This document shows, in pieces, positions 51,512-63,575 of a stretch of 64,000 nucleotides of DNA (its first letter is position 1; every line of letters starts with the position of its first letter). The DNA lies in assembly GCA_965222605.1 (NCBI GenBank), contig OZ244960.1, positions 4,512,001 through 4,576,000 on the forward strand, read 5' to 3'. Position numbers and translations under genes: made by a program. Under the pieces are notes generated by a model, which did no database searches, was not told the DNA's origin, and saw nothing but the letters and a program-made list of their open reading frames with translations. This DNA comes from Candidatus Latescibacterota bacterium (GTDB taxonomy: Bacteria > Latescibacterota > UBA2968).

Positions 51512-52606
51512 CTATTCGATTAAGGCTTCGGAGATTGCGTCGTGAAATTCGGGGCGAAGATGGGCAATTTGATTGTTCTCGCGGGTGGGGTGTACGCGAT
51601 TGGTGAGGAGAATGACGCCGAGGTCTCGTATGGGGTCTCCCCATACGGATGTGCCGGTAAAACCGAGGATGCCGAAGGATTGTTCGCTAAAGTGGCGGCC
51701 GCTCGAACTTTCGCCGGGTGAGACCGTGTCCCAGCCGAGTGCCCAGGTGCTGTTGGGCGCGAGGTTGGCGCGTGTGGTAAATTGTGGAATGCTCCGTTTG
51801 GGAAAGATGCCTGTGCCGAGCCATGCGAGCAGGCATTTCGCCAGATCATGCGCTGTGGAAAACAGACCGGCGTGGGAGGCGATACCACCCATTGCGGCGG
51901 CATTTTCATCGTGGACTTCACCGTGTACGAGGTGATCGCGCAAGTCGGAGCCGTTTTCAGTGGGGGCAATGCGGTGTTTGAGATGGGGTGGTGGACAGTA
52001 CCTGGTGTCGTTCATTTTGAGCGGTTCGAATATGTGCTGTTTGACGAGGTGATCCAGACGATGGCCGCCGATGGTTTCGAGGATTTTACCCAGGGTGAGA
52101 AAGCCCAGGTCGCTGTACACGGTGTCTGTGCCGGGTTCATAAATTAAGGGAAGTTGGTACGCTGCGTTGAGCATGGCATCGCGGATGTCAATATCGTGCG
52201 CTACGCGTTGGTCTTCGTACAGGTGAACATGTGCGGGCAGGCCACTGCAATGAGCGAGTAGATGACGAATTGTGACGCGGTTTTTGTTTTTCCCGGTGAA
52301 AGAGGGTACATAAAATTGCACGGGTGCGTCGAGGATGAGGTGACCTCCAGCGGCAAATAACATGCAGAGTGTTGTCGTGGCGATGACTTTGGTGACGGAA
52401 GCGAGGTCGTAGAGGGTATTGATTTGCACAGGTGTCGCGTTGGGCTGATATGTGTAGTGGCCCACAGCCCAGCAGGTGACTATGCCCGCGCGGCGCAGGA
52501 CAAGGCCGACGGCACCGGGTGCAGTGCGTGTATGCACATGGTGTTGTAAGACTTGCCTGGCGCGGTCGAGTTTTTGCGAATTAAAACCGAGTTGTTCGGG
52601 TGTCAT
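51512..52606 (-). CDS. Serine hydrolase, beta-lactamase class C-like
   Basis: YDLASVTK (SxxK), LLAHCSGL, YSDLGF, GEVHDENA, GFTGT, LTNRVHP; AGGAG RBS before ATG 52606. Confidence 0.9.
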   Translation of the reverse strand: MTPEQLGFNSQKLDRARQVLQHHVHTRTAPGAVGLVLRRAGIVTCWAVGHYTYQPNATPVQINTLYDLASVTKVIATTTLCMLFAAGGHLILDAPVQFYVPSFTGKNKNRVTIRHLLAHCSGLPAHVHLYEDQRVAHDIDIRDAMLNAAYQLPLIYEPGTDTVYSDLGFLTLGKILETIGGHRLDHLVKQHIFEPLKMNDTRYCPPPHLKHRIAPTENGSDLRDHLVHGEVHDENAAAMGGIASHAGLFSTAHDLAKCLLAWLGTGIFPKRSIPQFTTRANLAPNSTWALGWDTVSPGESSSGRHFSEQSFGILGFTGTSVWGDPIRDLGVILLTNRVHPTRENNQIAHLRPEFHDAISEALIE

Positions 52607-52702
52607 TTGTGTCTCCTGACCTCTTGCACGTAGCATTTCTGTGTTCTATATTGCTAAAATAAGAGACAATAGCAAAGGAAATTTGACTGGGGAGATTGTT
52701 TT

Positions 52703-53350
52703 ATGAGATATCGACATATCTTTGGTGCAAGCGCATTTATCGCCCTGTTTTTTGCGGTGTGTATGCCCGCTGAGGGACAGGTGAATGTGGAACGGCTCGA
52801 GAGTATTGCGCGACATGTGGCGCGGGCGGTTTTAGCTGAGGGGGATTCTCTGACGGCAGAGCAGGTCGCATGGGTCGAGCGTATGACCGCGCAATTGGCA
52901 GAGGATGTGGTGTTTCTCGACGAGCAAAAACAGCGGTTGGAAGAGGTGCGCAGGGAAAGAGATGCGTCGATTCGGAATATCGCGAGCCAGGTTGCCAGGG
53001 GGATCGCTGTTCTGATTGCGCTGCTGGTTTTGTGGGCGATTTTCCGTGTGATTCGAAGGGGGGTGCGTGCCGAGTCGGGAGATGATCCTCTGGGGGTGTT
53101 GATTGCGATGCGCACAGAAGCGTGGGCGCAGAAACTCGGCAAGACGCTTGTTGAAGAAAATTTGGCGACGGGTGGAACTGTTGCACCGAGTATCCGTTCA
53201 ATCTATCGTAGGGAGGATGGGGTGCGAGAAGCTGCGGAGGCGATGGTTTTTTTGAAGACGACGCGGGCGCAACTCAGCCATTTGATTGGCCGCGCAGAGG
53301 AATTGGGCGAGGGCAAGACGCCAGAGCTCGTTGTGATATGTGAGGTGTGA
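52703..53350 (+). CDS. Single-pass membrane protein with C-terminal CutA-like domain (A)
   Basis: Signal peptide (AEG), helical ectodomain, TM followed by RVIRR, then AQKLGKTLVEENLA...SIRSIYR.E.GV.E..E.MVFLKTT...TPE. Confidence 0.75.
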   Translation: MRYRHIFGASAFIALFFAVCMPAEGQVNVERLESIARHVARAVLAEGDSLTAEQVAWVERMTAQLAEDVVFLDEQKQRLEEVRRERDASIRNIASQVARGIAVLIALLVLWAIFRVIRRGVRAESGDDPLGVLIAMRTEAWAQKLGKTLVEENLATGGTVAPSIRSIYRREDGVREAAEAMVFLKTTRAQLSHLIGRAEELGEGKTPELVVICEV

Positions 53351-53419
53351 AATGCAACCACAGATGAACACGGATGAAAGGTAAGATACAAGACGTTAAA
53401 AGGCGATGAGATGTTAAGA

Positions 53420-53448
53420 GTAGGGGCGGTGCCCCTGTGCCCGCCCGT
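53420..53448 (+). repeat. GTAG-type REP element, copy 2
   Basis: GTAGGGGCGGTGCCCCTGTGCCCGCCCGT. Confidence 0.75.
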
Positions 53449-53465
53449 GAAAGGATACCGATAGC

Positions 53466-54143
53466 ATGTTAAAAGTCTGGATCGTCATTCTGTTTGGATT
53501 TTGTTTTGTTGCGTCCGTAGAGGCTGTGGATGAGGATGCCTCGCGTATTGCGCGGGAGATGGTTCGCTCGCTGTACGGTTCCGAGCGCGTGAAGCCGTTG
53601 CCACCTGTGGCGAATGCACAGGTGCGCGTTATTGCGAGAAAGTTGGCTGCGGAGTCAGATGGCCGTTTTCAGCATGCGTTTTTTCAAGAGGAGGATCGGG
53701 AGCAAGGGGCGTTTTTCAGCGGACTGATGAAGCACGTTGTTATCGGGGTGATGATTTGTCTGGTGTTTTTTGTGGTGCATACGGTTGTGCGAAAAATTGA
53801 TGCGGCACGGCGTCTGGGGAAAACCGATCTCAATGTCGCGGTTCACGGTGGGTTGCGCGCCGCGCCTTATGTTCTGGCTCTTCCCATGCCATCTGAGGCG
53901 GAGGCAAGTCGCGTGGGGCACGCGCTTGTTGCCGAGCGGTTGGCTGCGCGTGTGGATGTTTTTTCGCAGTATTTTTTGTCGCCGAATCGGGATGGAGATA
54001 TCGTGCTATTTGTGATGACTGTAAAAGGGCGCTTGAGGTCACTGAAAAAACGGCTGGGGAATTTGTCTATTTCATTTCCCGTTTCGCATGGGCACAGGTC
54101 CTATTTGACGTGGATTGCCGATGCGGCTGATGGGAGAGGGTAG
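53466..54143 (+). CDS. Single-pass membrane protein with C-terminal CutA-like domain (B)
   Basis: Signal peptide (VEA), TM followed by RK..RR, then PSEAEASRVGHALVAERLAARV...FPVSHGHRSYLTWI. Confidence 0.7.
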   Translation: MLKVWIVILFGFCFVASVEAVDEDASRIAREMVRSLYGSERVKPLPPVANAQVRVIARKLAAESDGRFQHAFFQEEDREQGAFFSGLMKHVVIGVMICLVFFVVHTVVRKIDAARRLGKTDLNVAVHGGLRAAPYVLALPMPSEAEASRVGHALVAERLAARVDVFSQYFLSPNRDGDIVLFVMTVKGRLRSLKKRLGNLSISFPVSHGHRSYLTWIADAADGRG

Positions 54144-54242: not shown

Positions 54243-54491
54243 ATGACGGTTCAAGAAATCACAGAAGTCATAAAAACGTTAAGCCCCAATGAGCTGAAGT
54301 ACTTACGGAATCTATTGGACGAGCACCTACCCATAGAAGGCGAAGTAGAAAAATGGGATGCTTTTCATCGATCCCTAATGGCGAAAGGTCTGGTTAAAGA
54401 ACTGAAGAAGCCGACAAAGACAACTGAACGCAGACTTATCAAGGCCAAGGGAAAGCCTGTATCACAAACAATTATTGAGGAGCGAAGATAG
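54243..54491 (+). CDS. Putative type II antitoxin
   Basis: 82 aa; AAGGAG RBS; C-terminal GKPVSQTIIEERR as seen in partners of PIN toxins; abuts a VapC remnant. Confidence 0.65.
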   Translation: MTVQEITEVIKTLSPNELKYLRNLLDEHLPIEGEVEKWDAFHRSLMAKGLVKELKKPTKTTERRLIKAKGKPVSQTIIEERR

Positions 54492-54578
54492 GTGGCGATT
54501 TATTATATGGATAGTAGTGGTATTGTTAAACGCTATGTCGATGAAATTGGTGTAGAAGATCCAAATGCACATTCTTAA
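54492..54578 (+). pseudogene. VapC/PIN toxin remnant with large in-frame internal deletion
   Basis: Translates (M)AIYYMDSSGIVKRYVDEIG-VEDPNAHS*: a PIN N-terminus fused to a PIN-like C-terminal tail. Confidence 0.75.
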
Positions 54579-54705: not shown

Positions 54706-57700
54706 ATGTCATACCGTATTTCTCTCTTCGTGTTGCTGACGCTGTTTGCGTGTAGCAAAAAGTCGCCCGAAGACGCACCGCTATCCTATCCTTTGGAGAC
54801 GGCGCGTATGGTGAGCCATGTGAGTGGGGGTGTGCTCGCATCGACCGATCCGATTCGCGTGCGTTTTGTATCGCCTGTTGTCGGCAAAAGTCAGGTTGGG
54901 CAGGTGTTGCGAACGCGCGTGTTTCGCTTTGTTCCATCTATTGACGGTTTGGCGACATGGGAAGATGTGCGTACGCTTGTTTTCAAGCCAAACGCACCGC
55001 TGGCGTTGCGTACAGTCTATAGCGGTGAACTTAGCATGGTCGATGTGTTTCCCCAGCACAAAGATCTGAAGCCGCTCATCATCCAGTTTGAGGTCGCGGG
55101 ACGAGAACTCGTCGCACTTGAGGCAGATTTTGAGTTGCCCGATGCGAATGATCCGCAGCGTCTCGTTTTTAGCGGTCAGATTAGCTTTAACGAACGCGCG
55201 GATTCTTCGGCTGTGAGCGATGCGGTGGCGTTGCGTCTGGGAGATCAGCGGCTTGCGCTCCATTGGCGCGTGTTATCAGATGGCAAGACGCACGATTTTA
55301 CAAGTGCCGAGATCACGCGCACAAGAGAGGCACAAGAACTCACCCTGCATATTGACCGAGCAGATTTGGAACTCTCGCAAGACTACGACAATACATGGTC
55401 TCTTCCCCCTTTATCGGTCCTTTCCGTTGTCAAGATTGAAAAACACACGGACCGGGACCGTCCGCGCGTAAGCATCATTTTTTCAGATGATCTCGATTTT
55501 GGTCAGGATATCGCGGGGTTGATCACAGTTGATCCACCGCAACAGCTTCAGCTCAACGCGCTTGGCAAAACAGTGGGTGTTGTAGGCAATTTTCAGCACG
55601 GACAGAGTTATGCGCTCACCGTACACCCCGGCATTCGCAGTCGCTGGGGCATTGCGCTGGCACAACCACATACAGAGACGGTGGTTTTTGACGATATAAA
55701 ACCTCGCATGCGTTTTGCGCGTGACGGTGTGTTTTTGCCCTCTTCTGGCAATCGAAAAATCCGGTTTCAGACGGTAAATGTGTCGCGCGTTCGTCTCAAG
55801 TTCGATAAAGTTTTTGAATCGAATCTGGGGCAGTTCTTGCAAGTTCAAGGGGTGGATGGATCGCGGGATCGCACGCGAGTATTTTCCTCTTATCAGATTC
55901 GGCGCGTGGGCGTGACAGTGGTGGATAAAAAACTGGATATTGGTAACGAAAAAAATGTGTGGTTGCAGCACGATCTCGATTTGGACGATCTGATTTCCAA
56001 AGATGAGAAGGGGCTTTATCTGATCGGTCTCACTTTTGGGGCAGAGGATATGCTTTACGGAGACCCGGTGGAAGCGGCAGAGGCGCGGCAACAACGCAGG
56101 CGGTACCGCGGGACTGATTATTATAACAATCCCTATTCGCGCGGTTATGTCTATCAGCATGGGCGCATCTATAAGCCGGTGGTGGTCAGCGATATCGGTC
56201 TTACGCATCAAAAGGCGCACGAGCGGCATCTCGTTTATGCCACCCATTTAGAAGATGCGCGTCCATTGTCCGGTGTCACCATAACCCTGCGCACATACCA
56301 GAATCAGATTGTGGAACAGAAAGTCACGGATCGGAATGGCCTGGCGGATTTTAGTCCTGTAAAATCAGATGTTTTTTTCATCGAAGCCGAGAAAGACGGG
56401 CAGCGCAGTTTTATCAAACCGGGGGATATGGCGTGGAATCTATCGACGTTTGATACGGGGGGACAAGACCCTGCACCCGATGGCATTCGGGCGTTTTTTT
56501 ACACGGAGCGCGGGGTTTATCGGCCCGGCGATGATATTCACTTGTCGACGATTGTGCGAAATCACAACCACACATTTCCAGATGGGCATCCGGTTTCGCT
56601 CGCGTTTTATAATCCATTGGGACAGCGCGTGCTCACGCAGACCAATCGCGAGGGGAAAGATGGGTTTTACACCTTTGATTTGTCGTCGTCGGCCGATGCA
56701 CCAACGGGCAACTGGCGCGCTGAAATTGATGTGGGTAGCCGCAAATTTAATCACACGGTCAAAATTGAAACCGTTGTGCCTTTTCGCCTCAAGGTCTTTC
56801 TCGATCCACAACTTGCAGATCGGGATCGGGTGTTGAAAGCAGATCTGAGGAGTACGTATTTATTTGGCAATCCAGCGGCGGGCTTAAAAGCCAGTGTCGA
56901 TGTTACGCTGCGCAGTTCTCCGCCTGTATTTCCCAAGTATGAGGGTTTTTCGTTTGTCAATCAGGCGGTGAAATTTAAGCCGATTACAACCAATATTTTT
57001 AAGGGCACTCTGGACAAGGAGGGCAAAGCCGCTGTGTCGTGGCAGCTTCCATCTTTGAGCGAAGCACCTTCGCGTCTGTCTGCGGTATTGCACGCTCGCG
57101 TGCTCGAAAAAGGGGGGCGACCCAATAGCACGGCGCGCACGGTACACATCGATCCATTTGGGGTTTATGTGGGGTTGCGAAAGCCAGATATGGATTACGG
57201 TTTTACGCGCATCAATGCCTCTCTTGAAGTGCCCGTTGTTGCGGTGACGCCCGATGGGGAGGTCGCGTCTGGACGCACGTTGATGTATCGCGTTTTTCAC
57301 AATGAGAATTACTGGTGGTGGGAATACGATTCGAGGGATCAGTTTCGCCTGCGTTTTAAGCGGGATTTCAGCACGAAGAAGATTTTCGAAACGTCGATTA
57401 TTTCTCAAGATCACCCGGTGCCGGTTGCGTTTACGCCCGAAAAAAAAGGAGAGTATTTGATTGAGGTGGCGGATGCAGATGGGCATAAGGCGTCACTTTT
57501 TATTCGCGCGTATCCCTGGGGCAGTTTGCCCGCAAGTGGGCGAGATGCTGGCGCATTGGTGCTCAAGACAGACCGAGAAAATTACGCGCCGGGTGAAATA
57601 GCTGTGGTGTCTTTTCCCGTGCCCGATACGTCGTCTGTGCTGGTGACTGTGTCTCGGGGTGGAAATGTGGTGCATTCGCGGTGGCACACGCCGAGCACGA

Positions 57701-60192
57701 GGAATACCGCGCAAATCGAGATTCCCATTACAGAAGGCATGGCGCCGAATGCGTATGTGACGGTATCCGTCATTCAGCCGCATAGACAGACGGCAAATGA
57801 TCGCCCGTTGCGGATGTATGGGATTGTGCCTTTGCGCGTAGTTGATCCAAATACGCGGCTCGATCTCACACTGACTGCGCCCGATGAACTCAAACCCGAC
57901 GATTCTTTTGAGGTTGTCGTGCAAACGGATGATGGAAAACCCGCGCAGTTGACGCTGTCTGTTGTGGATGAAGGTTTGCTGGATATCACGCAATTTTCAA
58001 CGCCCGATCCCTGGCGTGCGTTTTTCAGCAAGTTGCGTTTGGGGCTTCATATTTCCGATTTGTTTGGGCAGGTTATAGGTGTCAATATTGGCGATGTGTT
58101 TAAGACCTTTGCGATAGGCGGCGATGCCGCTCTGGCTGCTTATCGGCGCGATAGGCTCCATGATGATCAAAAACAGCGTTTTAAGTCTGTATCGCTTTTT
58201 GAAGGTCCGGTTGCAACCGACGATCAGGGGCGCGCTGTGGTTTCTTTTGTTATGCCCAATTACGTCGGTTCGGTGCGCATCATGGCTGTGGCTGCGCGGG
58301 GCAATGCTTATGGCAGTGAGGAAAAAACAGTACCGGTGAAAACGGATTTGATGGTTTTGCCCACTTTGCCGCGCGTGTTGCGCCCCGGTGATCGCATTGC
58401 CGTTCCAGCTACTGTATTTGCTATGAGAGATAGTTTGGGATCTGTTGATGTGGCGATTAGCACAGAGGGATTTCTCAATGTCGATGGACGGGTGCGGGAT
58501 ACCATTGCGTTTCAAAAAGCCGGTGAAAAAGATGTGCTATTTATGTGTACGGTGCCCAATGCAATTGGAGACGCGCGCGTTGCGATTACTGCGACTGCTG
58601 GCGATGTGATTGCTACGCATACAACGGATCTGACTATTTCACCGTCGTCGCCGCGCATCAGTGCCGATGATACGCGGGAGATACGGTCGGGACAGGCGGT
58701 TGTACTTCCCATTCCCGATCGGGGCATTCCCGGTTCCAATCGCGCACGTCTCACTCTGCACACGCGCCCGAATGTGAAGCTCGGCAACCGTCTGCTTTGG
58801 CTGGTGCGATATCCATACGGTTGTGTCGAGCAAGTGGTGTCGGCGGCATTTCCACAGCTTTATCTCAAAGATATCCTCCTGGTATCGGATAAATCGAATG
58901 AGATTGCGCGGGAGATTGATGATCATATAAATGCTGCGATTCGGCGGTTGCGCCGATTTCGGCTGTCGTCGGGTGCGCTCAGTTATTGGCCGGGGCGATC
59001 TGATCCCTCGATGTGGGGCACGCTATATGCCGGGCATTTTTTGATTGAGGCCGATGCTCTCGGTTATTATGTGCCAGACGACCTGTTTTATAGCTGGGTG
59101 CAATACCAGCAATCTCGCGCTTTGACCACGCGCGATGATCTCATGATCCGAACCTATCGGGTCTATTTGCTCGCACTGGCAAATCAGCCCGCTCTGGGGG
59201 CGATGAATTTACTAAAGGAAAGTAGTTTGCGGGATATGACGGATGTGGAGAAATGGCTGTTGGCATCGGCGTATCACCGCGCGGGTAGTTCTGCGATAGC
59301 CAATGAGATTCTCAGAAATGCGGGGACGCTCGCAAACAAGGGCAACAGGTGGGAAAATACCTTTGGGTCTGCGCTGAGAGACCGGGCAATGATTCTATCG
59401 GCGATGATTGATTTGCAACGTTGGGAAGAAGCCGATCCTCTGGCCGATGAAATCGCGCTGGCACTGGCATCGGACATGTGGTATTCGACACAGTCGAGCA
59501 GTTTCGCGCTGCTGGCACTGGGCAAGCATATCCGGGCGACCGAGGGGGATCAACCGCTGCGTTTGACGGGTTCGGTGACATTGCCCGGTGGGGAAGTCGT
59601 GCCGTTTGATTCGGGTTCGCGGTTTTACAATATCGATATCGAATCTGGATTTGGACAATCTATTCGCGTCCAACTCAGTCCCGAGAGCACGGTGACGCGG
59701 GCGTTTGCGACACTCGAATGGTCGGGCATTCCGCTCAGAGCTGACGCTGTAGCCGAATCTCGTAGTTTGCAACTCGACGTGCGCTGGCGCGATGACGATG
59801 GCTTTCCCGTGTATCCCGATACGCTCAAACAGGGGGCGACATTCTGGGGACATTTCAGCGTGAAAAATACATCTGTCGCACATATCCGCGAGATTGCATT
59901 GACTCAGTTGTTGCCTTCGGGTTGGGAAATCGAAAATACGCGCTTGTCGGGCGCGCCAATGCCGAGGTGGACTTCTAATTTGCGTTTGGGCCGCGAGGCA
60001 TATTTCGATATGCGCGACGATCGCGCGACATATTTTTTTGACATCGCACCTGCGAGCAACACTCAGAATTTTGTCGTGAAGCTCAATGCTGTTACGGTGG
60101 GTACATTTACCCTGCCACCCACACTTGTCGAGGCGATGTACAATAATAAAATCAAAGCGGTTGTGCCGGGTAGAACTGTGGTGGTGAGGTGA
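54706..60192 (+). CDS. Alpha-2-macroglobulin family lipoprotein
   Basis: 1828 aa; lipobox LFAC, YTERGVYRPGD, VDEGLL, thioester YPYGCVEQ, WYSTQ, LPSGWEIEN; upstream of pbpC. Confidence 0.95.
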   Translation: MSYRISLFVLLTLFACSKKSPEDAPLSYPLETARMVSHVSGGVLASTDPIRVRFVSPVVGKSQVGQVLRTRVFRFVPSIDGLATWEDVRTLVFKPNAPLALRTVYSGELSMVDVFPQHKDLKPLIIQFEVAGRELVALEADFELPDANDPQRLVFSGQISFNERADSSAVSDAVALRLGDQRLALHWRVLSDGKTHDFTSAEITRTREAQELTLHIDRADLELSQDYDNTWSLPPLSVLSVVKIEKHTDRDRPRVSIIFSDDLDFGQDIAGLITVDPPQQLQLNALGKTVGVVGNFQHGQSYALTVHPGIRSRWGIALAQPHTETVVFDDIKPRMRFARDGVFLPSSGNRKIRFQTVNVSRVRLKFDKVFESNLGQFLQVQGVDGSRDRTRVFSSYQIRRVGVTVVDKKLDIGNEKNVWLQHDLDLDDLISKDEKGLYLIGLTFGAEDMLYGDPVEAAEARQQRRRYRGTDYYNNPYSRGYVYQHGRIYKPVVVSDIGLTHQKAHERHLVYATHLEDARPLSGVTITLRTYQNQIVEQKVTDRNGLADFSPVKSDVFFIEAEKDGQRSFIKPGDMAWNLSTFDTGGQDPAPDGIRAFFYTERGVYRPGDDIHLSTIVRNHNHTFPDGHPVSLAFYNPLGQRVLTQTNREGKDGFYTFDLSSSADAPTGNWRAEIDVGSRKFNHTVKIETVVPFRLKVFLDPQLADRDRVLKADLRSTYLFGNPAAGLKASVDVTLRSSPPVFPKYEGFSFVNQAVKFKPITTNIFKGTLDKEGKAAVSWQLPSLSEAPSRLSAVLHARVLEKGGRPNSTARTVHIDPFGVYVGLRKPDMDYGFTRINASLEVPVVAVTPDGEVASGRTLMYRVFHNENYWWWEYDSRDQFRLRFKRDFSTKKIFETSIISQDHPVPVAFTPEKKGEYLIEVADADGHKASLFIRAYPWGSLPASGRDAGALVLKTDRENYAPGEIAVVSFPVPDTSSVLVTVSRGGNVVHSRWHTPSTRNTAQIEIPITEGMAPNAYVTVSVIQPHRQTANDRPLRMYGIVPLRVVDPNTRLDLTLTAPDELKPDDSFEVVVQTDDGKPAQLTLSVVDEGLLDITQFSTPDPWRAFFSKLRLGLHISDLFGQVIGVNIGDVFKTFAIGGDAALAAYRRDRLHDDQKQRFKSVSLFEGPVATDDQGRAVVSFVMPNYVGSVRIMAVAARGNAYGSEEKTVPVKTDLMVLPTLPRVLRPGDRIAVPATVFAMRDSLGSVDVAISTEGFLNVDGRVRDTIAFQKAGEKDVLFMCTVPNAIGDARVAITATAGDVIATHTTDLTISPSSPRISADDTREIRSGQAVVLPIPDRGIPGSNRARLTLHTRPNVKLGNRLLWLVRYPYGCVEQVVSAAFPQLYLKDILLVSDKSNEIAREIDDHINAAIRRLRRFRLSSGALSYWPGRSDPSMWGTLYAGHFLIEADALGYYVPDDLFYSWVQYQQSRALTTRDDLMIRTYRVYLLALANQPALGAMNLLKESSLRDMTDVEKWLLASAYHRAGSSAIANEILRNAGTLANKGNRWENTFGSALRDRAMILSAMIDLQRWEEADPLADEIALALASDMWYSTQSSSFALLALGKHIRATEGDQPLRLTGSVTLPGGEVVPFDSGSRFYNIDIESGFGQSIRVQLSPESTVTRAFATLEWSGIPLRADAVAESRSLQLDVRWRDDDGFPVYPDTLKQGATFWGHFSVKNTSVAHIREIALTQLLPSGWEIENTRLSGAPMPRWTSNLRLGREAYFDMRDDRATYFFDIAPASNTQNFVVKLNAVTVGTFTLPPTLVEAMYNNKIKAVVPGRTVVVR

Positions 60193-60304
60193 TCCGCAGA
60201 TGACGCAGAAAAAACGCGAGTAATTTGAGCGTTTTACGCAGATGAAAAGAGGGGCTGGAGGGCTGGGGTTATCCTGTTCATCCTTTTCTCCTGATATCCT
60301 GATC

Positions 60305-62590
60305 ATGAGACGCCGATACAAAATTTTAATCGGTATTTTTGCGGGAATAGTACTTCTGTACTTTGCTATTCCGGTGACGCATTTTTTAGAGGATTATAGC
60401 ACGGTTGTGCTGGATAAAGACGGGCGCGTTTTGCGCGCATTTCTCAATAACCGCCAGCAGTGGCATTTTCCGCCGCAGAAGAATGTGCGCGTTTCGCAGA
60501 AGCTCAAAACGAGTGTGCTCTATTTTGAAGATCGATATTTTGAGTACCACTTTGGCGTCAATCCCGTGTCTGTGGTGCGCGCGTTGTATCAAAATTTGAA
60601 ACAGGGCAAAACTGTGAGTGGTGCGAGTACGTTGACCATGCAAGTTGCGCGGCTGATGCACCCCAGGCCGCGCACATATCTCAACAAAACACTGGAGATG
60701 CTTCAGGTGCTGAAGATCGAGATGCGGTATTCAAAAGAAGAGATTTTGCAACTTTATCTCGATCACGCGCCTTATGGCGGGAATGTGGTGGGCTATCGGG
60801 CGGCGGCGTTGCGTTTTTTTCGGAAGGCACCGGACCAACTGACATGGGCAGAGGCGGCAGTGCTCGCGGTATTGCCCAATTCGCCGGGAAAAATTTCGCC
60901 TCAGACAAATCCCGGTACTTTAAAAAAGAAGCGCGATGCGTTGCTCAACGCACTGCACAGGGCGGGATATTTTGATGCGGAGACGCTGTATCTGGCGCGA
61001 AAAGAGTCTGTACCGCGCAAGTCGCATCCGTTTCCCATGCTGGCCCCTCATTTGGCGCGGTACATTAAAGATCGCCAGACGTCGTTTGTGCATCCAACGA
61101 CGATTGATCGGAATATTCAGATGCGGGCAGAAGAACTCGTTGCGCGTCATGTCAGCAGGTTGCGGCAGCGCGGGATTCACAATGGTTTTGCGCTGATTGC
61201 GGATACCAAAACGGGTGCTGTTCGCGCTTATATCGGGTCTGAAAATTTCACAGATAGTCACGTCGATGGGATTCGCGCGCCGCGGTCGTCGGGTTCGTTG
61301 CTCAAGCCGTTTCTCTACGCGCTCAGTATGGATGCGGGGTTGATTCTGCCGCAGAGCAAAATTCGGGATATTCCGACGTATTACGGTTCGTTTTCGCCAC
61401 ACAATGCCAGTCGCACGTTTCAGGGGCTTGTCTCGGCGCACGATGCTTTGATTTTGTCGGCGAATGTGCCTGCGGTGCGCCTGCTTTCTACGTATGGCGT
61501 GGTGGCGTTTTACGAACGGCTTCGCGCGGCTGGTTTGACGACGTTGTTCCGCACGCCGAATGATTACGGTTTGCCCCTTGTGCTCGGCGGTGCCGAGGTG
61601 ACGGGCTGGGATATGGCGGTGCTTTTTCGCGGCCTGGGCAATGGGGGCGTGTTTCAGCCCCTTCATATCAATCCGGCAGACCGTCCGCCTGAACCCCCGC
61701 GTTTGCTCAGTCGCGGCGCGTGTTATCTGGTGCTGAATACGTTGCGCGATCTCTCGCGGCCCGGAGTAGAATTTTACTGGCATCAGTTTCAAAACCAGTG
61801 GCCCATTGCCTGGAAAACGGGTACGAGTTATGGACACCGCGATGCGTGGGCCGTGGGGGTGTCGCCGCAGTGGACGATTGCTGTGTGGGTGGGAAATTTC
61901 GCGGGTGAAGGGGTGTCTGAACTCACGGGGGCGCGCTGTGCCGCGCCTTTGTTTTTCGATCTGTTTAACAGTTTGCCCCACGATCCCGATCAACGGTGGT
62001 TTGCGCCGCCTCAGGCCGATTTGACCCGGCGCGATATCTGTGCAGATACGGGGTATCGCGCCGCGCCGCATTGTCCAGAGCGGGTTTCTGTGGAAGCTCC
62101 CCGCGTACTTTTGAAAATTTGCCCGTATCATCGGGTTATAACTGTGAATGCCGATAGTACACAGCGGGTATGCTCTCTTTGTTGGCAGCCGGGTGAACAC
62201 CGTCGCGTTGTGCGTTTGGTGTATCCGCCAGATGTTGTTCACCACTTGCGACAACGGGGTCAAAGTACAGGGGATTTGCCACCGCATCGCGCGGACTGTG
62301 CAGCGCAAGCTGATCACGCGCCTGTACATATTGTGTATCCAACGCGGAATGCGCGTCTTTATTTGCCCCGAGATTTTGACGGTACCGTGCAGAATGTCGT
62401 GTTGCGGGTGACACATCGCGATAAAAACCGCACGTTATACTGGTATCTCAACCATCGCTATCTGGGAGAGACGAATACGCGGCATGTCAAATCTGTCGCC
62501 TTACCGACAGGCCAACACACGCTCGAAGTGATCGATGAGATCGGCCATCGCGATCAAACGCGTTTTTATGTCTCGTCGAGACAGGGGTGA
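60305..62590 (+). CDS. pbpC: Penicillin-binding protein 1C
   Basis: FEDRYF, SGASTLTMQVARL, GSLLKPF (SxxK), SANVPA, WKTGTSYG.RDAW, C-terminal PBP1C domain. Start at ATG 60305. Confidence 0.95.
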   Translation: MRRRYKILIGIFAGIVLLYFAIPVTHFLEDYSTVVLDKDGRVLRAFLNNRQQWHFPPQKNVRVSQKLKTSVLYFEDRYFEYHFGVNPVSVVRALYQNLKQGKTVSGASTLTMQVARLMHPRPRTYLNKTLEMLQVLKIEMRYSKEEILQLYLDHAPYGGNVVGYRAAALRFFRKAPDQLTWAEAAVLAVLPNSPGKISPQTNPGTLKKKRDALLNALHRAGYFDAETLYLARKESVPRKSHPFPMLAPHLARYIKDRQTSFVHPTTIDRNIQMRAEELVARHVSRLRQRGIHNGFALIADTKTGAVRAYIGSENFTDSHVDGIRAPRSSGSLLKPFLYALSMDAGLILPQSKIRDIPTYYGSFSPHNASRTFQGLVSAHDALILSANVPAVRLLSTYGVVAFYERLRAAGLTTLFRTPNDYGLPLVLGGAEVTGWDMAVLFRGLGNGGVFQPLHINPADRPPEPPRLLSRGACYLVLNTLRDLSRPGVEFYWHQFQNQWPIAWKTGTSYGHRDAWAVGVSPQWTIAVWVGNFAGEGVSELTGARCAAPLFFDLFNSLPHDPDQRWFAPPQADLTRRDICADTGYRAAPHCPERVSVEAPRVLLKICPYHRVITVNADSTQRVCSLCWQPGEHRRVVRLVYPPDVVHHLRQRGQSTGDLPPHRADCAAQADHAPVHIVYPTRNARLYLPRDFDGTVQNVVLRVTHRDKNRTLYWYLNHRYLGETNTRHVKSVALPTGQHTLEVIDEIGHRDQTRFYVSSRQG

Positions 62591-62663: not shown

Positions 62664-63575
62664 ATGTACATTCCAGAAACCCTATCGTCCAATCCAAAAT
62701 GGGCTGGATGGATCGAACGGCTACCAGATATTGTCGCTGCGTGTGCAAAGCGATGGGATCTTCGCATTGAAAATCCTATGACAGAAGATTACGCCGAAAT
62801 GTCCTATAGCTATATCGCACCGGCGAGGGATGCGAAGGGCACAGAGGTCATTTTAAAAATTGGCTCGCCTTCGCAACTGGCGGAAATCTGGCAACAAGAG
62901 TGCCACGCGCTGCAACTTTGCAATGGTGATGGCACGGTCAAGTTGCTCGATTTTGACGAGGCGTTGGGCGTGCTGATGCTCGAGCGCGTCTGTCCAGGTG
63001 TGCCTTTGGGTGTTTGTCCGGATGACGAGGAGAATACGCGCATTGCCGCTCGCCTGATGAAAAAGTTCTGGCAACCCGTTCCGAAAATTCACACTTTTCG
63101 ACCGACGGCTTACGAAATAGATGGCTTTGACAAATTGCGTAAAAAATTCAATGGCGGCACTGGGCCGTTGCCCGAGAAATGGGTTGTGCGCGCCGAAACA
63201 CTTTACGATGAGTTGATGAGTACCAGTACAGAAACGGTTGTTCTGCACGGGGATTTGCATCACTGGAATATCTTGAGTTCAGAGCGCGAACCGTATCTCG
63301 TCATTGATCCCAAAGGTTATTTTGGCGATCCGGGTTACGAGGTCGGTGCTTTTTTGGCGAATTATCCCGACGCATCCTGTGAAGGATATGACCGGGGTGA
63401 AATCGATGTTCGACGCGTGGAGATTATGGCCGAAGAATTGGATATCCCGCGCGAGCGAATTATCAAATGGGGTCTGGTTCTGGCTTTAATTTGGGCGAGG
63501 TGGAGTGCGGATACGCCCGAAGAATTTTGGCGTACAAGTATTAATCGCGCCCAGGCATTGGATCAGTTGCTTTAG
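62664..63575 (+). CDS. Aminoglycoside/hydroxyurea phosphotransferase family kinase (APH(6)-like)
   Basis: W.ERLP......KRW.L, ILKIG, LMLER, LHGDLHHWNIL, IDPKG..GDPGYE. Confidence 0.85.
   Translation: MYIPETLSSNPKWAGWIERLPDIVAACAKRWDLRIENPMTEDYAEMSYSYIAPARDAKGTEVILKIGSPSQLAEIWQQECHALQLCNGDGTVKLLDFDEALGVLMLERVCPGVPLGVCPDDEENTRIAARLMKKFWQPVPKIHTFRPTAYEIDGFDKLRKKFNGGTGPLPEKWVVRAETLYDELMSTSTETVVLHGDLHHWNILSSEREPYLVIDPKGYFGDPGYEVGAFLANYPDASCEGYDRGEIDVRRVEIMAEELDIPRERIIKWGLVLALIWARWSADTPEEFWRTSINRAQALDQLL

Follow-up and report, generated by a model that had tools for sequence, protein, structure and literature searches.

In this study, we analyzed two neighboring genes, A (215 amino acids, aa) and B (225 aa), on the forward strand of a stretch of 64,000 nucleotides (nt) from Candidatus Latescibacterota bacterium (assembly GCA_965222605.1, contig OZ244960.1, positions 4,512,001 to 4,576,000), hereafter referred to as the window. 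Unless another contig or locus is named, coordinates are those of the window (Table 1). Our results make it very probable that A and B represent an old, lineage-specific pair of membrane-tethered CutA (PII-like) proteins, which is located at the cutA locus and replaces the soluble CutA. The complete explanation that we favor, comprising the identity and origin of the pair, a mixed assembly of both proteins and an altered role of their CutA domains, has in our assessment slightly better than even prospects. CutA is conserved in all domains of life and its function is debated. The pair is a variant of this known family and not a new kind of system.

An earlier note on this DNA, made from the letters alone, had placed two same-strand open reading frames (ORFs) here and had assigned a CutA-like C-terminal domain to each of them. 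The ORFs lie where it had put them, and the fold assignment was borne out for both proteins. The gathering score of the Pfam family CutA1 (PF03091; 22.4 bits) is exceeded by A with 49.6 bits (residues 132-212 on profile positions 3-83 of 99, the last ~16 positions missing) and by B with 23.7 bits (residues 138-219 on positions 4-98 of 99); among the B orthologues, only some carry a precomputed PF03091 label. In AlphaFold2 models built from alignments of relatives (mean pLDDT 71.9 for A and 73.8 for B), A has a short helix at its N-terminus, followed by helices 29-45 and 52-122, the latter running unbroken through the membrane segment, and by a beta-alpha-beta-beta-alpha-beta domain (residues 129-213). 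The B model is laid out in a similar way; its second strand is short, and a further helix (211-222) is present at the C-terminus. The best Foldseek matches in the PDB were solved CutA1 structures for both models (A: E 8e-9, target-normalised TM-score 0.76-0.79, root-mean-square deviation (rmsd) 1.2-1.8 Å over ~87 residues; B: E 1e-5, TM-score 0.65-0.74, rmsd 3-5 Å). A complete CutA domain with its C-terminal strand and helix was not found in A; this element is present in B. The cut-offs of the NCBIfam CutA equivalogs NF007930 and NF041095 are far from reached by A (30.2 versus 145 and 27.2 versus 120) as well as by B (14 versus 120 and 12.8 versus 145). In databases, A is labeled as CutA of a Gemmatimonadetes/Gemmatimonadota metagenome-assembled genome and B as hypothetical. 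A PF03091 search of the 6.34-Mb single-contig genome to which the window belongs gave matches at A and B only.

Ahead of the CutA domain, each protein carries a signal-like N-terminus, a helical ectodomain of ~70 aa and one transmembrane (TM) helix followed by basic residues, as had been proposed before. Kyte-Doolittle peaks are found at residues 5-24 and 92-121 of A and at 1-23 and 81-114 of B, and the second hydrophobic segment is followed by a basic stretch (RVIRRGVR in A, RKIDAARRLGK in B). The N-terminus of A is basic before the first hydrophobic segment, and small residues at positions -3/-1 of this segment (AEG↓Q in A, VEA↓V in B) are compatible with a cleaved signal peptide. Whether the first segment is a cleaved signal or an uncleaved TM helix, the CutA domain is predicted to be cytoplasmic in both readings. 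The similar ectodomain starts that had been noticed in both proteins reflect true homology, since a profile-profile alignment covers the whole N-terminal modules (hhalign 96.9%, E 1.6e-10, 110 columns); a BLASTP comparison of A with B reached an E-value of only 0.09. This whole-length homology of the N-terminal modules indicates that the anchored gene was duplicated as a unit. Overall, a membrane-anchored CutA layout (signal-like N-terminus, ectodomain, FliF-like TM segment and CutA domain in one frame) was found in both A and B.

According to profile comparisons, part of this anchor (residues 67-126 of A) originates from the 3' region of fliF, from which it was captured. This segment aligns with the juxtamembrane helix, second TM helix (TM2) and basic stretch of FliF (hhalign 99.2%, E 2e-19), and within-genome comparisons of A-type proteins with FliF gave 58-61% identity over 53-56 residues (E 2e-13 and 7e-15). 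Further matches of the A query, ~510-aa proteins of sister genera aligned at A residues 65-125, are FliF (PF01514 and PF08345). The match of B to FliF is weak and in the same register (hhalign 37%, E 3.5e-4), and a sister-genus FliF query against the genome studied here found gene A only (E 7.1e-5). A wider FliF homology of the ectodomain, as suggested by a BLASTP alignment covering A residues 32-121, was rejected: once the TM helix and 12 juxtamembrane residues had been removed, hhalign gave P = 0.042 over 16 columns, with a reversed-sequence control at 0.34. As the similarity is gone without the TM helix, only residues ~67-126 are demonstrably FliF-derived. Neither PF01514 nor PF08345 matched A or B at E <= 1, i.e. 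the ring-building domains are absent. FliF (PF01514) was found in 0/21 genomes of the genus to which the window belongs (g1), and FlhA was not found in the genome itself. In the remaining four genera of the family, FliF was present in each of the genomes sampled (4/4), and FliF-type matches occurred in 7/8 membrane-form genomes outside g1. Together with the similarity of A, the lack of a detected FliF in the genus indicates that a FliF fragment survives there only within the CutA anchor. In a comparison directed at co-evolution or gene conversion between the gene-1 (A-type) TM segment and FliF, the FliF of the same genome was the best or tied match in 4/7 rows, by 1-3 of 49 residues.

Related arrangements were seen in two other genomes. 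G021 encodes a 193-aa protein with the FliF-like TM module and without a CutA domain (locus L032). In G041, a 'mini-FliF' (L048:1439-1972) of 177 aa combines a signal peptide with the last ~145 FliF residues, which comprise the end of the periplasmic region, TM2 and the tail after it. Its gene is located apart from the complete fliF, and the protein may represent an intermediate stage of anchor capture or a rotor regulator. The FliF of G021 (C1:4515217-4516407) appears to be divided into a 345-aa frame with the PF01514 part and a separate 129-aa frame with TM2 and the C-terminus, which may be due to a frameshift or a pseudogene.

Next, we investigated the distribution of the membrane form in 53 genomes of the order, which were searched with a complete membrane-anchored relative (P0149). 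Matches running through the TM segment and the CutA domain in one frame were obtained in 29/53 genomes (g1 21, g4 1, g5 1, g9 3, g10 1, g11 2). The remaining 24 genomes (g2 2, g3 3, g6 15, g7 2, g8 2) contained only a canonical soluble CutA of ~105 aa in a short frame, matching residues ~98-198 of the query. Membrane form and canonical CutA were found together in 0/53 genomes, and each of the two states was seen in both families of the order. A gene for a beta-lactamase-fold serine hydrolase adjoins A divergently in 19/21 genus genomes, the exceptions being G012 (contig cut) and G010 (rearranged), and it also adjoins the pair in G023, G024, G041-G043 and G047-G049. The same gene adjoins the canonical cutA in 6/6 loci fetched and the single-gene membrane form in locus L057. 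In family f2, for example, SHMT, the beta-lactamase-fold gene, the CutA gene or genes and ROK are common to L028, which has the canonical cutA, and L043, which has the pair. The same neighbor beside membrane and canonical forms shows that cutA was replaced in place and not supplemented.

Both genes of the pair were detected in 29/29 membrane-form genomes and are adjacent on the same strand in 27 of the 28 that could be judged, so that the pair is indeed conserved together; in G024, the A-type and the B-type gene are on two short contigs. A maximum-likelihood tree of the CutA domains was built from 41 rows and 102 columns; its deep branching is uncertain given the short domain. The tree groups all 12 rows of gene 2/B, which come from six genera, in a single clade (support 90/92; recovered in 90% of bootstrap trees), and gene 1/A does not separate from canonical CutA. 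Judging from this clade, the A/B duplication is old and a single event. A and B are each present in 21/21 genus genomes without a disrupted frame. Pairwise Nei-Gojobori omega among these 21 genomes is 0.19 for A and 0.24 for B, compared with 0.18 for the neighboring hydrolase gene (19 genomes). Broken down by region, omega of A and B is 0.17 and 0.17 for the ectodomain, 0.21 and 0.33 for the TM helix with the basic stretch, and 0.16 and 0.24 for the CutA domain. Both genes are thus under purifying selection and are not decaying duplicates; such a decay had been named in the earlier note as a way in which its interpretation could fail.

The gap between A and B comprises 115 nt in this genome, part of which is a palindromic REP-like element. 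The genome contains no fewer than 40 copies of this element, as counted from 40 scored out of 95 candidates. Across 20 genus loci, the gap ranges from 4 to 174 nt and is exactly 4 nt in 5/20; a hand estimate for G023 is ~93 nt. Promoter-like and terminator-like sites showed no excess over shuffled sequences, and the spacer does not fold better than shuffles (z = 0.23). In four RNA libraries from four studies, contigs 85-95% alike cover parts of A and B, and one RNA-library contig of 870 nt spans the 3' end of A through all of B. An RNA-library contig of a relative omits positions 53352-53419, immediately upstream of the REP-like element, and short high-depth pieces of such contigs accumulate on the element itself.

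Table 1 Coordinates of genes A and B, their parts and associated features in the window.
Feature	Position	Strand	Evidence
Gene A, 'gene 1' type membrane-anchored CutA paralogue without CutA C-terminal element	52703..53350	+	ORF, PF03091
A residues 1-24, signal-peptide-like N-terminus or uncleaved first TM helix	52703..52774	+	Hydropathy, low pLDDT
A residues 25-96, helical ectodomain, predicted periplasmic	52775..52990	+	AlphaFold2 helices 29-45, 52-122
A residues 67-126, homologous to FliF juxtamembrane helix, TM2 and basic stop-transfer stretch	52901..53080	+	hhalign
A residues ~98-118, transmembrane helix	52994..53056	+	Hydropathy maximum 2.3 at 99-118, then RVIRRGVR
A residues 129-213, CutA1-fold domain, predicted cytoplasmic, ends after beta4	53087..53341	+	Pfam, AlphaFold2, Foldseek
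REP-like 29-nt GC-rich element in the A-B spacer	53420..53448		At least 40 copies in own genome
Gene B, 'gene 2' type membrane-anchored CutA paralogue; hairpin shortened, HSYDVPE deleted	53466..54143	+	ORF, PF03091
B residues 1-21, signal-peptide-like N-terminus	53466..53528	+	Hydropathy peak 1-23, VEA↓V
B residues 22-87, helical ectodomain	53529..53726	+	AlphaFold2 helices 23-37, 47-63, 66-122
B residues ~89-109, transmembrane helix	53730..53792	+	Hydropathy maximum 2.57 at 90-108, then RKIDAARRLGK
B residues 134-222, degenerate CutA1-fold domain with P..G..YL.W helix and conserved ADGRG tail	53865..54131	+	Pfam, AlphaFold2, Foldseek
Beta-lactamase-fold serine hydrolase gene, divergent, marks ancestral cutA locus	51512..52636	-	PF00144 198.6 bits

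As a next step, we aligned both proteins with canonical CutAs of sister genera and scored 15 canonical sites: the Cys of the AAC motif, the hairpin Tyr and Trp, the acidic sites at E. coli E59/E61, LKT, the His and Tyr of HSY, PE (including E90) and P..G..Y..W. The motif inventory of the earlier note was reproduced: A keeps SIY, LKT and PE, has ATG in place of AAC and GEG in place of HSY, and stops before P..G..YL.W, and B keeps ERLAA(R) and PVSHGHRSYLTWI, with a deletion of 6-8 residues in the hairpin and a 7-residue deletion of HSYDVPE. In total, A keeps 6/15 canonical sites (Y168, E179, K185, T186, P207, E208), and B keeps 7/15 here, compared with 4-5/15 in three other genomes of the genus. 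Of the 15 sites, 14-15 are found in canonical CutAs of the order and 13-14 in single-gene membrane forms. Gene 1/A retains 11-12 sites in g10, g11 and g5 and 5-6 in g9, g4 and g1; the corresponding numbers for gene 2/B are 9-11 and 4-7. The Cys is absent from gene 1 throughout, followed by a stepwise loss of the C-terminal element, the Trp and HSY. Gene 2 lacks the hairpin Tyr/Trp and the HSY Tyr throughout and loses the Cys and PE later, with P..G always kept and the C-terminal Trp kept except in three g1 rows. In g10, 8 sites are kept by both genes, 4 by gene 1 only, 3 by gene 2 only and 0 by neither. As judged from these alignments, the losses are divided between the copies from the earliest pairs onward and are progressive.

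These losses affect the residues by which CutA subunits are held together. It has been reported that five conserved aromatic residues lock the CutA subunit interfaces (PMC3004244) and that the interface is built on pairing of beta2 with beta2 of both neighboring subunits (PMC6823277). Assigned by their place in the motifs, 5/5 of these aromatics are present in canonical CutAs of the order, 1/5 in A (Y168) and 2/5 in B (Y213, W216). The beta2-beta3 hairpin is complete in A; in B, the proximal part is left and the distal half is lost. With so few interface aromatics and the hairpin loss of B, neither protein alone resembles a stable canonical trimer subunit.

A similar picture was obtained for the ligand sites. 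PMC12685090 reports that the conserved intersubunit cleft of CutA includes E. coli E59, E61 and E90, that CutA binds pteridines, and, citing other work, that E. coli CutA binds Cu(II) via a His2Cys site. In an ungapped alignment to 1NAQ, in which E. coli residue n corresponds to A residue n+118, E59, E61 and E90 fall on A177, E179 and E208 of A, giving 2/3 pocket glutamates, and C39 falls on G157. In B, the E90 position lies in the deletion, and the two Asp aligned to E59/E61 are not conserved among B orthologues. A His2Cys-type Cu(II) site was found in neither protein: the Cys is G157 in A and Arg in B, and the HSY His is Gly in A and deleted in B. Here, we take the conserved Cys and the HSY His to be the actual metal ligands of the His2Cys site. 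According to the alignments, at most a part of the canonical chemistry of metal site and pocket is retained, and this in A alone.

Based on these results, a stepwise origin can be proposed. A soluble CutA would first have become an anchored CutA with an intact domain, part of the anchor coming from the 3' part of fliF; the whole anchored gene would then have been duplicated, and losses would have been divided between the two copies. That A and B are now mutually dependent and co-assemble as a mixed membrane-bound CutA-like oligomer is, on evolutionary evidence, about an even proposition. Such an oligomer would probably be a heterotrimer, to which the homologous ectodomain/TM helices and the CutA-like domains might both contribute. 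A would supply the long beta2-beta3 hairpin, on which the CutA trimer interface is centered, as well as the acidic pocket residues still present (equivalents of E61 and E90), and B would supply the C-terminal helix with the interface Tyr and Trp. With the Cys and the HSY His gone from both proteins and 2/3 pocket glutamates in A only, the ancestral ligand chemistry has probably been altered or reduced. The assembly is more likely a membrane-localised scaffold or regulator that took over the CutA role at the membrane. A periplasmic signal relayed through the continuous ectodomain-TM helix, as the AlphaFold2 models might suggest, is possible but unlikely. Improbable is a more elaborate version, in which an obligate asymmetric A/B heterotrimer would act as a membrane-spanning PII-like device with a usable cleft only at the A-to-B interface. 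The FliF-derived segment would originally have attached this heterotrimer to the MS ring, with a small-molecule (pterin, copper or redox) sensor positioned at the rotor as a result, and the heterotrimer would have been kept in the genus without a detected FliF as a free-standing transmembrane signalling unit in place of soluble CutA.

Several observations weigh against a mixed assembly of this kind. In g1, 4-7/15 sites are lost from both copies. In the A and B studied here, these are the Cys, the HSY His, the HSY Tyr and the hairpin Trp, and no A/B interface can thus restore a fully canonical cleft. Complementarity by site counts does not go beyond chance: ~2.8 shared sites are expected and 2 are seen in this genome, and for g10 0.8 doubly lost sites are expected under independent loss and 0 are seen, with the reservation that the sites are grouped within some five structural elements and that the lineages are non-independent. 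We therefore rejected a statistical complementarity of the losses and keep the term as a description. The Pfam score of B is marginal (23.7 versus 22.4 bits). In G010, A and B are intact and 3.4 Mb apart, which implies that co-transcription is not essential, and a single A-B transcript is a weak hint from RNA-library contigs, which may contain DNA. The evidence for the single-gene stage comes from one locus, and a partner elsewhere in the P0149 genome is possible. Finally, two membrane-anchored proteins from metagenomes (P0143, P0183) carry a pair of consecutive CutA domains on one chain, of which the first lacks the C-terminal element; this arrangement would fit stacked homotrimers A3 + B3.

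This leads to the alternative that A and B do not mix and instead form separate membrane-anchored homotrimers, or two stacked trimers, that have diverged to different jobs. We consider this possible, albeit unlikely. P0149 suggests that a membrane CutA is viable without a nearby partner gene, the serial domains of P0143 and P0183 fit two trimer layers, and the A domain alone makes up a complete beta-alpha-beta-beta-alpha-beta fold; however, with the lost aromatics and half of the B hairpin missing from the beta2 region that builds the trimer interface, homotrimers would lack most of the known contacts. Likewise, G010 retains both genes though they are unlinked, but one gene without the other was found in 0/29 genomes, and the 4-nt gap in a quarter of the 20 genus loci suggests coupled expression.

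Another explanation would place the function in the ectodomain and TM helix, whose FliF-like segment would, in flagellated relatives, dock to the MS ring or another membrane complex, with the CutA-like domains as degenerate cytoplasmic appendages that have hardly any ligand function. Such a role is improbable; in g1, purifying selection includes the CutA domains (omega 0.16 and 0.24) although FliF was detected in none of the 21 genomes. The gene-1 TM segments are 58-73% identical to FliF TM2, and FliF-type matches accompany the membrane form in nearly all genomes outside g1, yet the FliF of the same genome is only marginally the best match. The CutA-less proteins with the same module in G021 and G041 would fit this explanation, as would the constraint on the ectodomains (omega 0.17), which equals that on the CutA domains, and the loss of many canonical CutA sites; at the same time, E179, K185, T186 and E208 of A and the C-terminal helix of B are conserved across genera. 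The idea that A and B are decaying cutA duplicates under relaxed selection, i.e. misannotated or functionless remnants, could invoke the many lost motifs, the marginal score of B and the long stems (0.65 and 0.94) of the derived clades of A and B, but has a negligible probability in view of open frames in 21/21 genus genomes and five other genera, a selection analysis that contradicts decay, the lack of any other CutA found in the genome, conserved traits specific to the lineage (e.g. the ADGRG tail of B) and, as a weak point, the RNA-library contigs.

The proposed anchored stage with an intact domain is represented by the single-gene membrane CutAs P0148, P0149 and P0153. They share the signal, the ectodomain, the FliF-like TM anchor and the locus with A and B; they differ in being one gene with 13-14/15 canonical sites, an upstream Mut7-C RNase gene and a basic WW(K/R)(K/R) tail. 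P0149 (14/15 sites kept; locus L057, 7.6 kb) is the sole such form seen in its genomic context, where no second CutA-like frame was found within 3.5 kb on either side. It lies between the Mut7-C RNase gene and a ROK gene, beside the beta-lactamase-fold gene. The WW(K/R)(K/R) tail ends most early and single-gene forms (P0146-P0150, P0153, the ORFs of L021 and L022, and gene 2 of L042) and is absent from A and B of g1, g4 and g9; it may be a membrane-interacting tail. A Mut7-C RNase gene (PF01927) is also located directly upstream of the canonical cutA in G036 and G021 (L033:3365-3844, L031:3163-3705), the Mut7-C frame of L057 (2980-3504) overlaps the P0149 frame by 4 nt, and fused PF01927 and PF03091 proteins exist (P0144, P0145). 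This points to a recurrent link between CutA and Mut7-C, which is absent at the A/B loci.

In a broader search, a profile of 19 membrane forms was compared with 1.84 billion representatives, resulting in 10,560 matches at E <= 0.001, including 23 at E <= 1e-30. Only ~26 of the best 150 of these matches extend through the N-terminal module, the others being ordinary CutAs of ~110 aa, which indicates that the architecture is rare. Further long CutA fusions exist, among others with NUDIX, Mut7-C/PIN and COX15. P0143 and P0183 were considered as Rosetta-stone fusions of A and B; this was rejected, as both of their domains fall outside the B clade, indicating an independent internal duplication.

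We further compared the pair with known systems. In the full-text literature searched, which leaves most subscription journals outside, there was no membrane-anchored bacterial CutA, in line with the earlier statement that the architecture is undescribed, and likewise no description of a CutA paralogue pair or a FliF-derived anchor. Canonical CutA1 (E. coli CutA, PDB 1NAQ; Thermus thermophilus, 1NZA) has the fold, sequence homology and chromosomal locus in common with A and B, but it is a soluble protein of ~105 aa encoded by one gene, whereas the pair consists of two diverged, membrane-anchored paralogues, A without the C-terminal strand and helix and B without half of the hairpin. FliF has the same topology as A (periplasmic segment, TM helix, cytoplasmic tail), but A lacks the ring-building domains and the FliG-binding tail. 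GlnK-AmtB and SbtB-SbtA bring a trimeric PII-like fold with intersubunit clefts, as in CutA, to the membrane; GlnK and SbtB are soluble and reversibly recruited, whereas in A and B the PII-like domain is covalently tethered and no transporter is a conserved neighbor. Among 55 flanking proteins from 16 loci, chosen from 129 ORFs with the CutA genes, the beta-lactamase-fold genes and most short ORFs set aside, we found no conserved transporter or other partner gene beyond the beta-lactamase-fold gene. In PMC12685090, CutA is proposed as a modulator of membrane transporters, and mammalian CUTA is described as associated with membrane-bound acetylcholinesterase and as entering the secretory pathway. 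Mammalian CUTA is likewise linked to membrane and secretion by an N-terminal extension, but is eukaryotic and luminal or extracellular, in contrast to the bacterial single-pass A and B with their predicted cytoplasmic CutA domain; the extensions are independent in origin.

Reports of pteridine and copper binding by CutA date only from 2025 (PMC12685090). The replacement of soluble CutA in place by tethered copies argues that the CutA role can be met at the inner face of the membrane. The lineage constitutes a natural experiment with three states, from an anchored single gene whose domain is intact through early pairs to degenerate late ones, and the series traces how a homotrimeric PII-like protein may become two mutually dependent paralogues. 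It also provides an unusual case of domain capture: a FliF fragment now serves as membrane anchor and has been retained in a genus in which FliF was not found.

Apart from the pair, the window and the compared loci contain further genes. In the rearranged genome G010 (L017, L018), A is now located beside a TIR-domain gene and a peroxiredoxin gene, and B retains the downstream sulfatase gene seen in G016 and G018, which places the breakpoint within the A-B spacer. Upstream of the pair, an IS66-family transposase gene (PF03050; 49960-51429) lies between a heparinase-like gene and the beta-lactamase-fold gene, in this genome only among the loci compared. Downstream of B follows an 82-aa ORF (54243-54578), which is conserved in four genus loci including this one, and then a short frame beginning with MDSSGIVKRYVDEIG that reaches a stop after ~23 codons. 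This frame presumably resembles the start of a PIN/VapC toxin, and together with the 82-aa ORF it may be a toxin-antitoxin remnant. Two further proteins are encoded at 54706-62590, first a bacterial alpha-2-macroglobulin of 1828 aa, which has nine A2M/MG Pfam domains and a lipoprotein-like start, and then a PBP1C-type protein with transglycosylase, transpeptidase and BiPBP_C domains; this stretch had no match in the other genus loci compared. The gene at 62664-63575 belongs to the aminoglycoside/hydroxyurea kinase family (PF04655, APH(6)-like).

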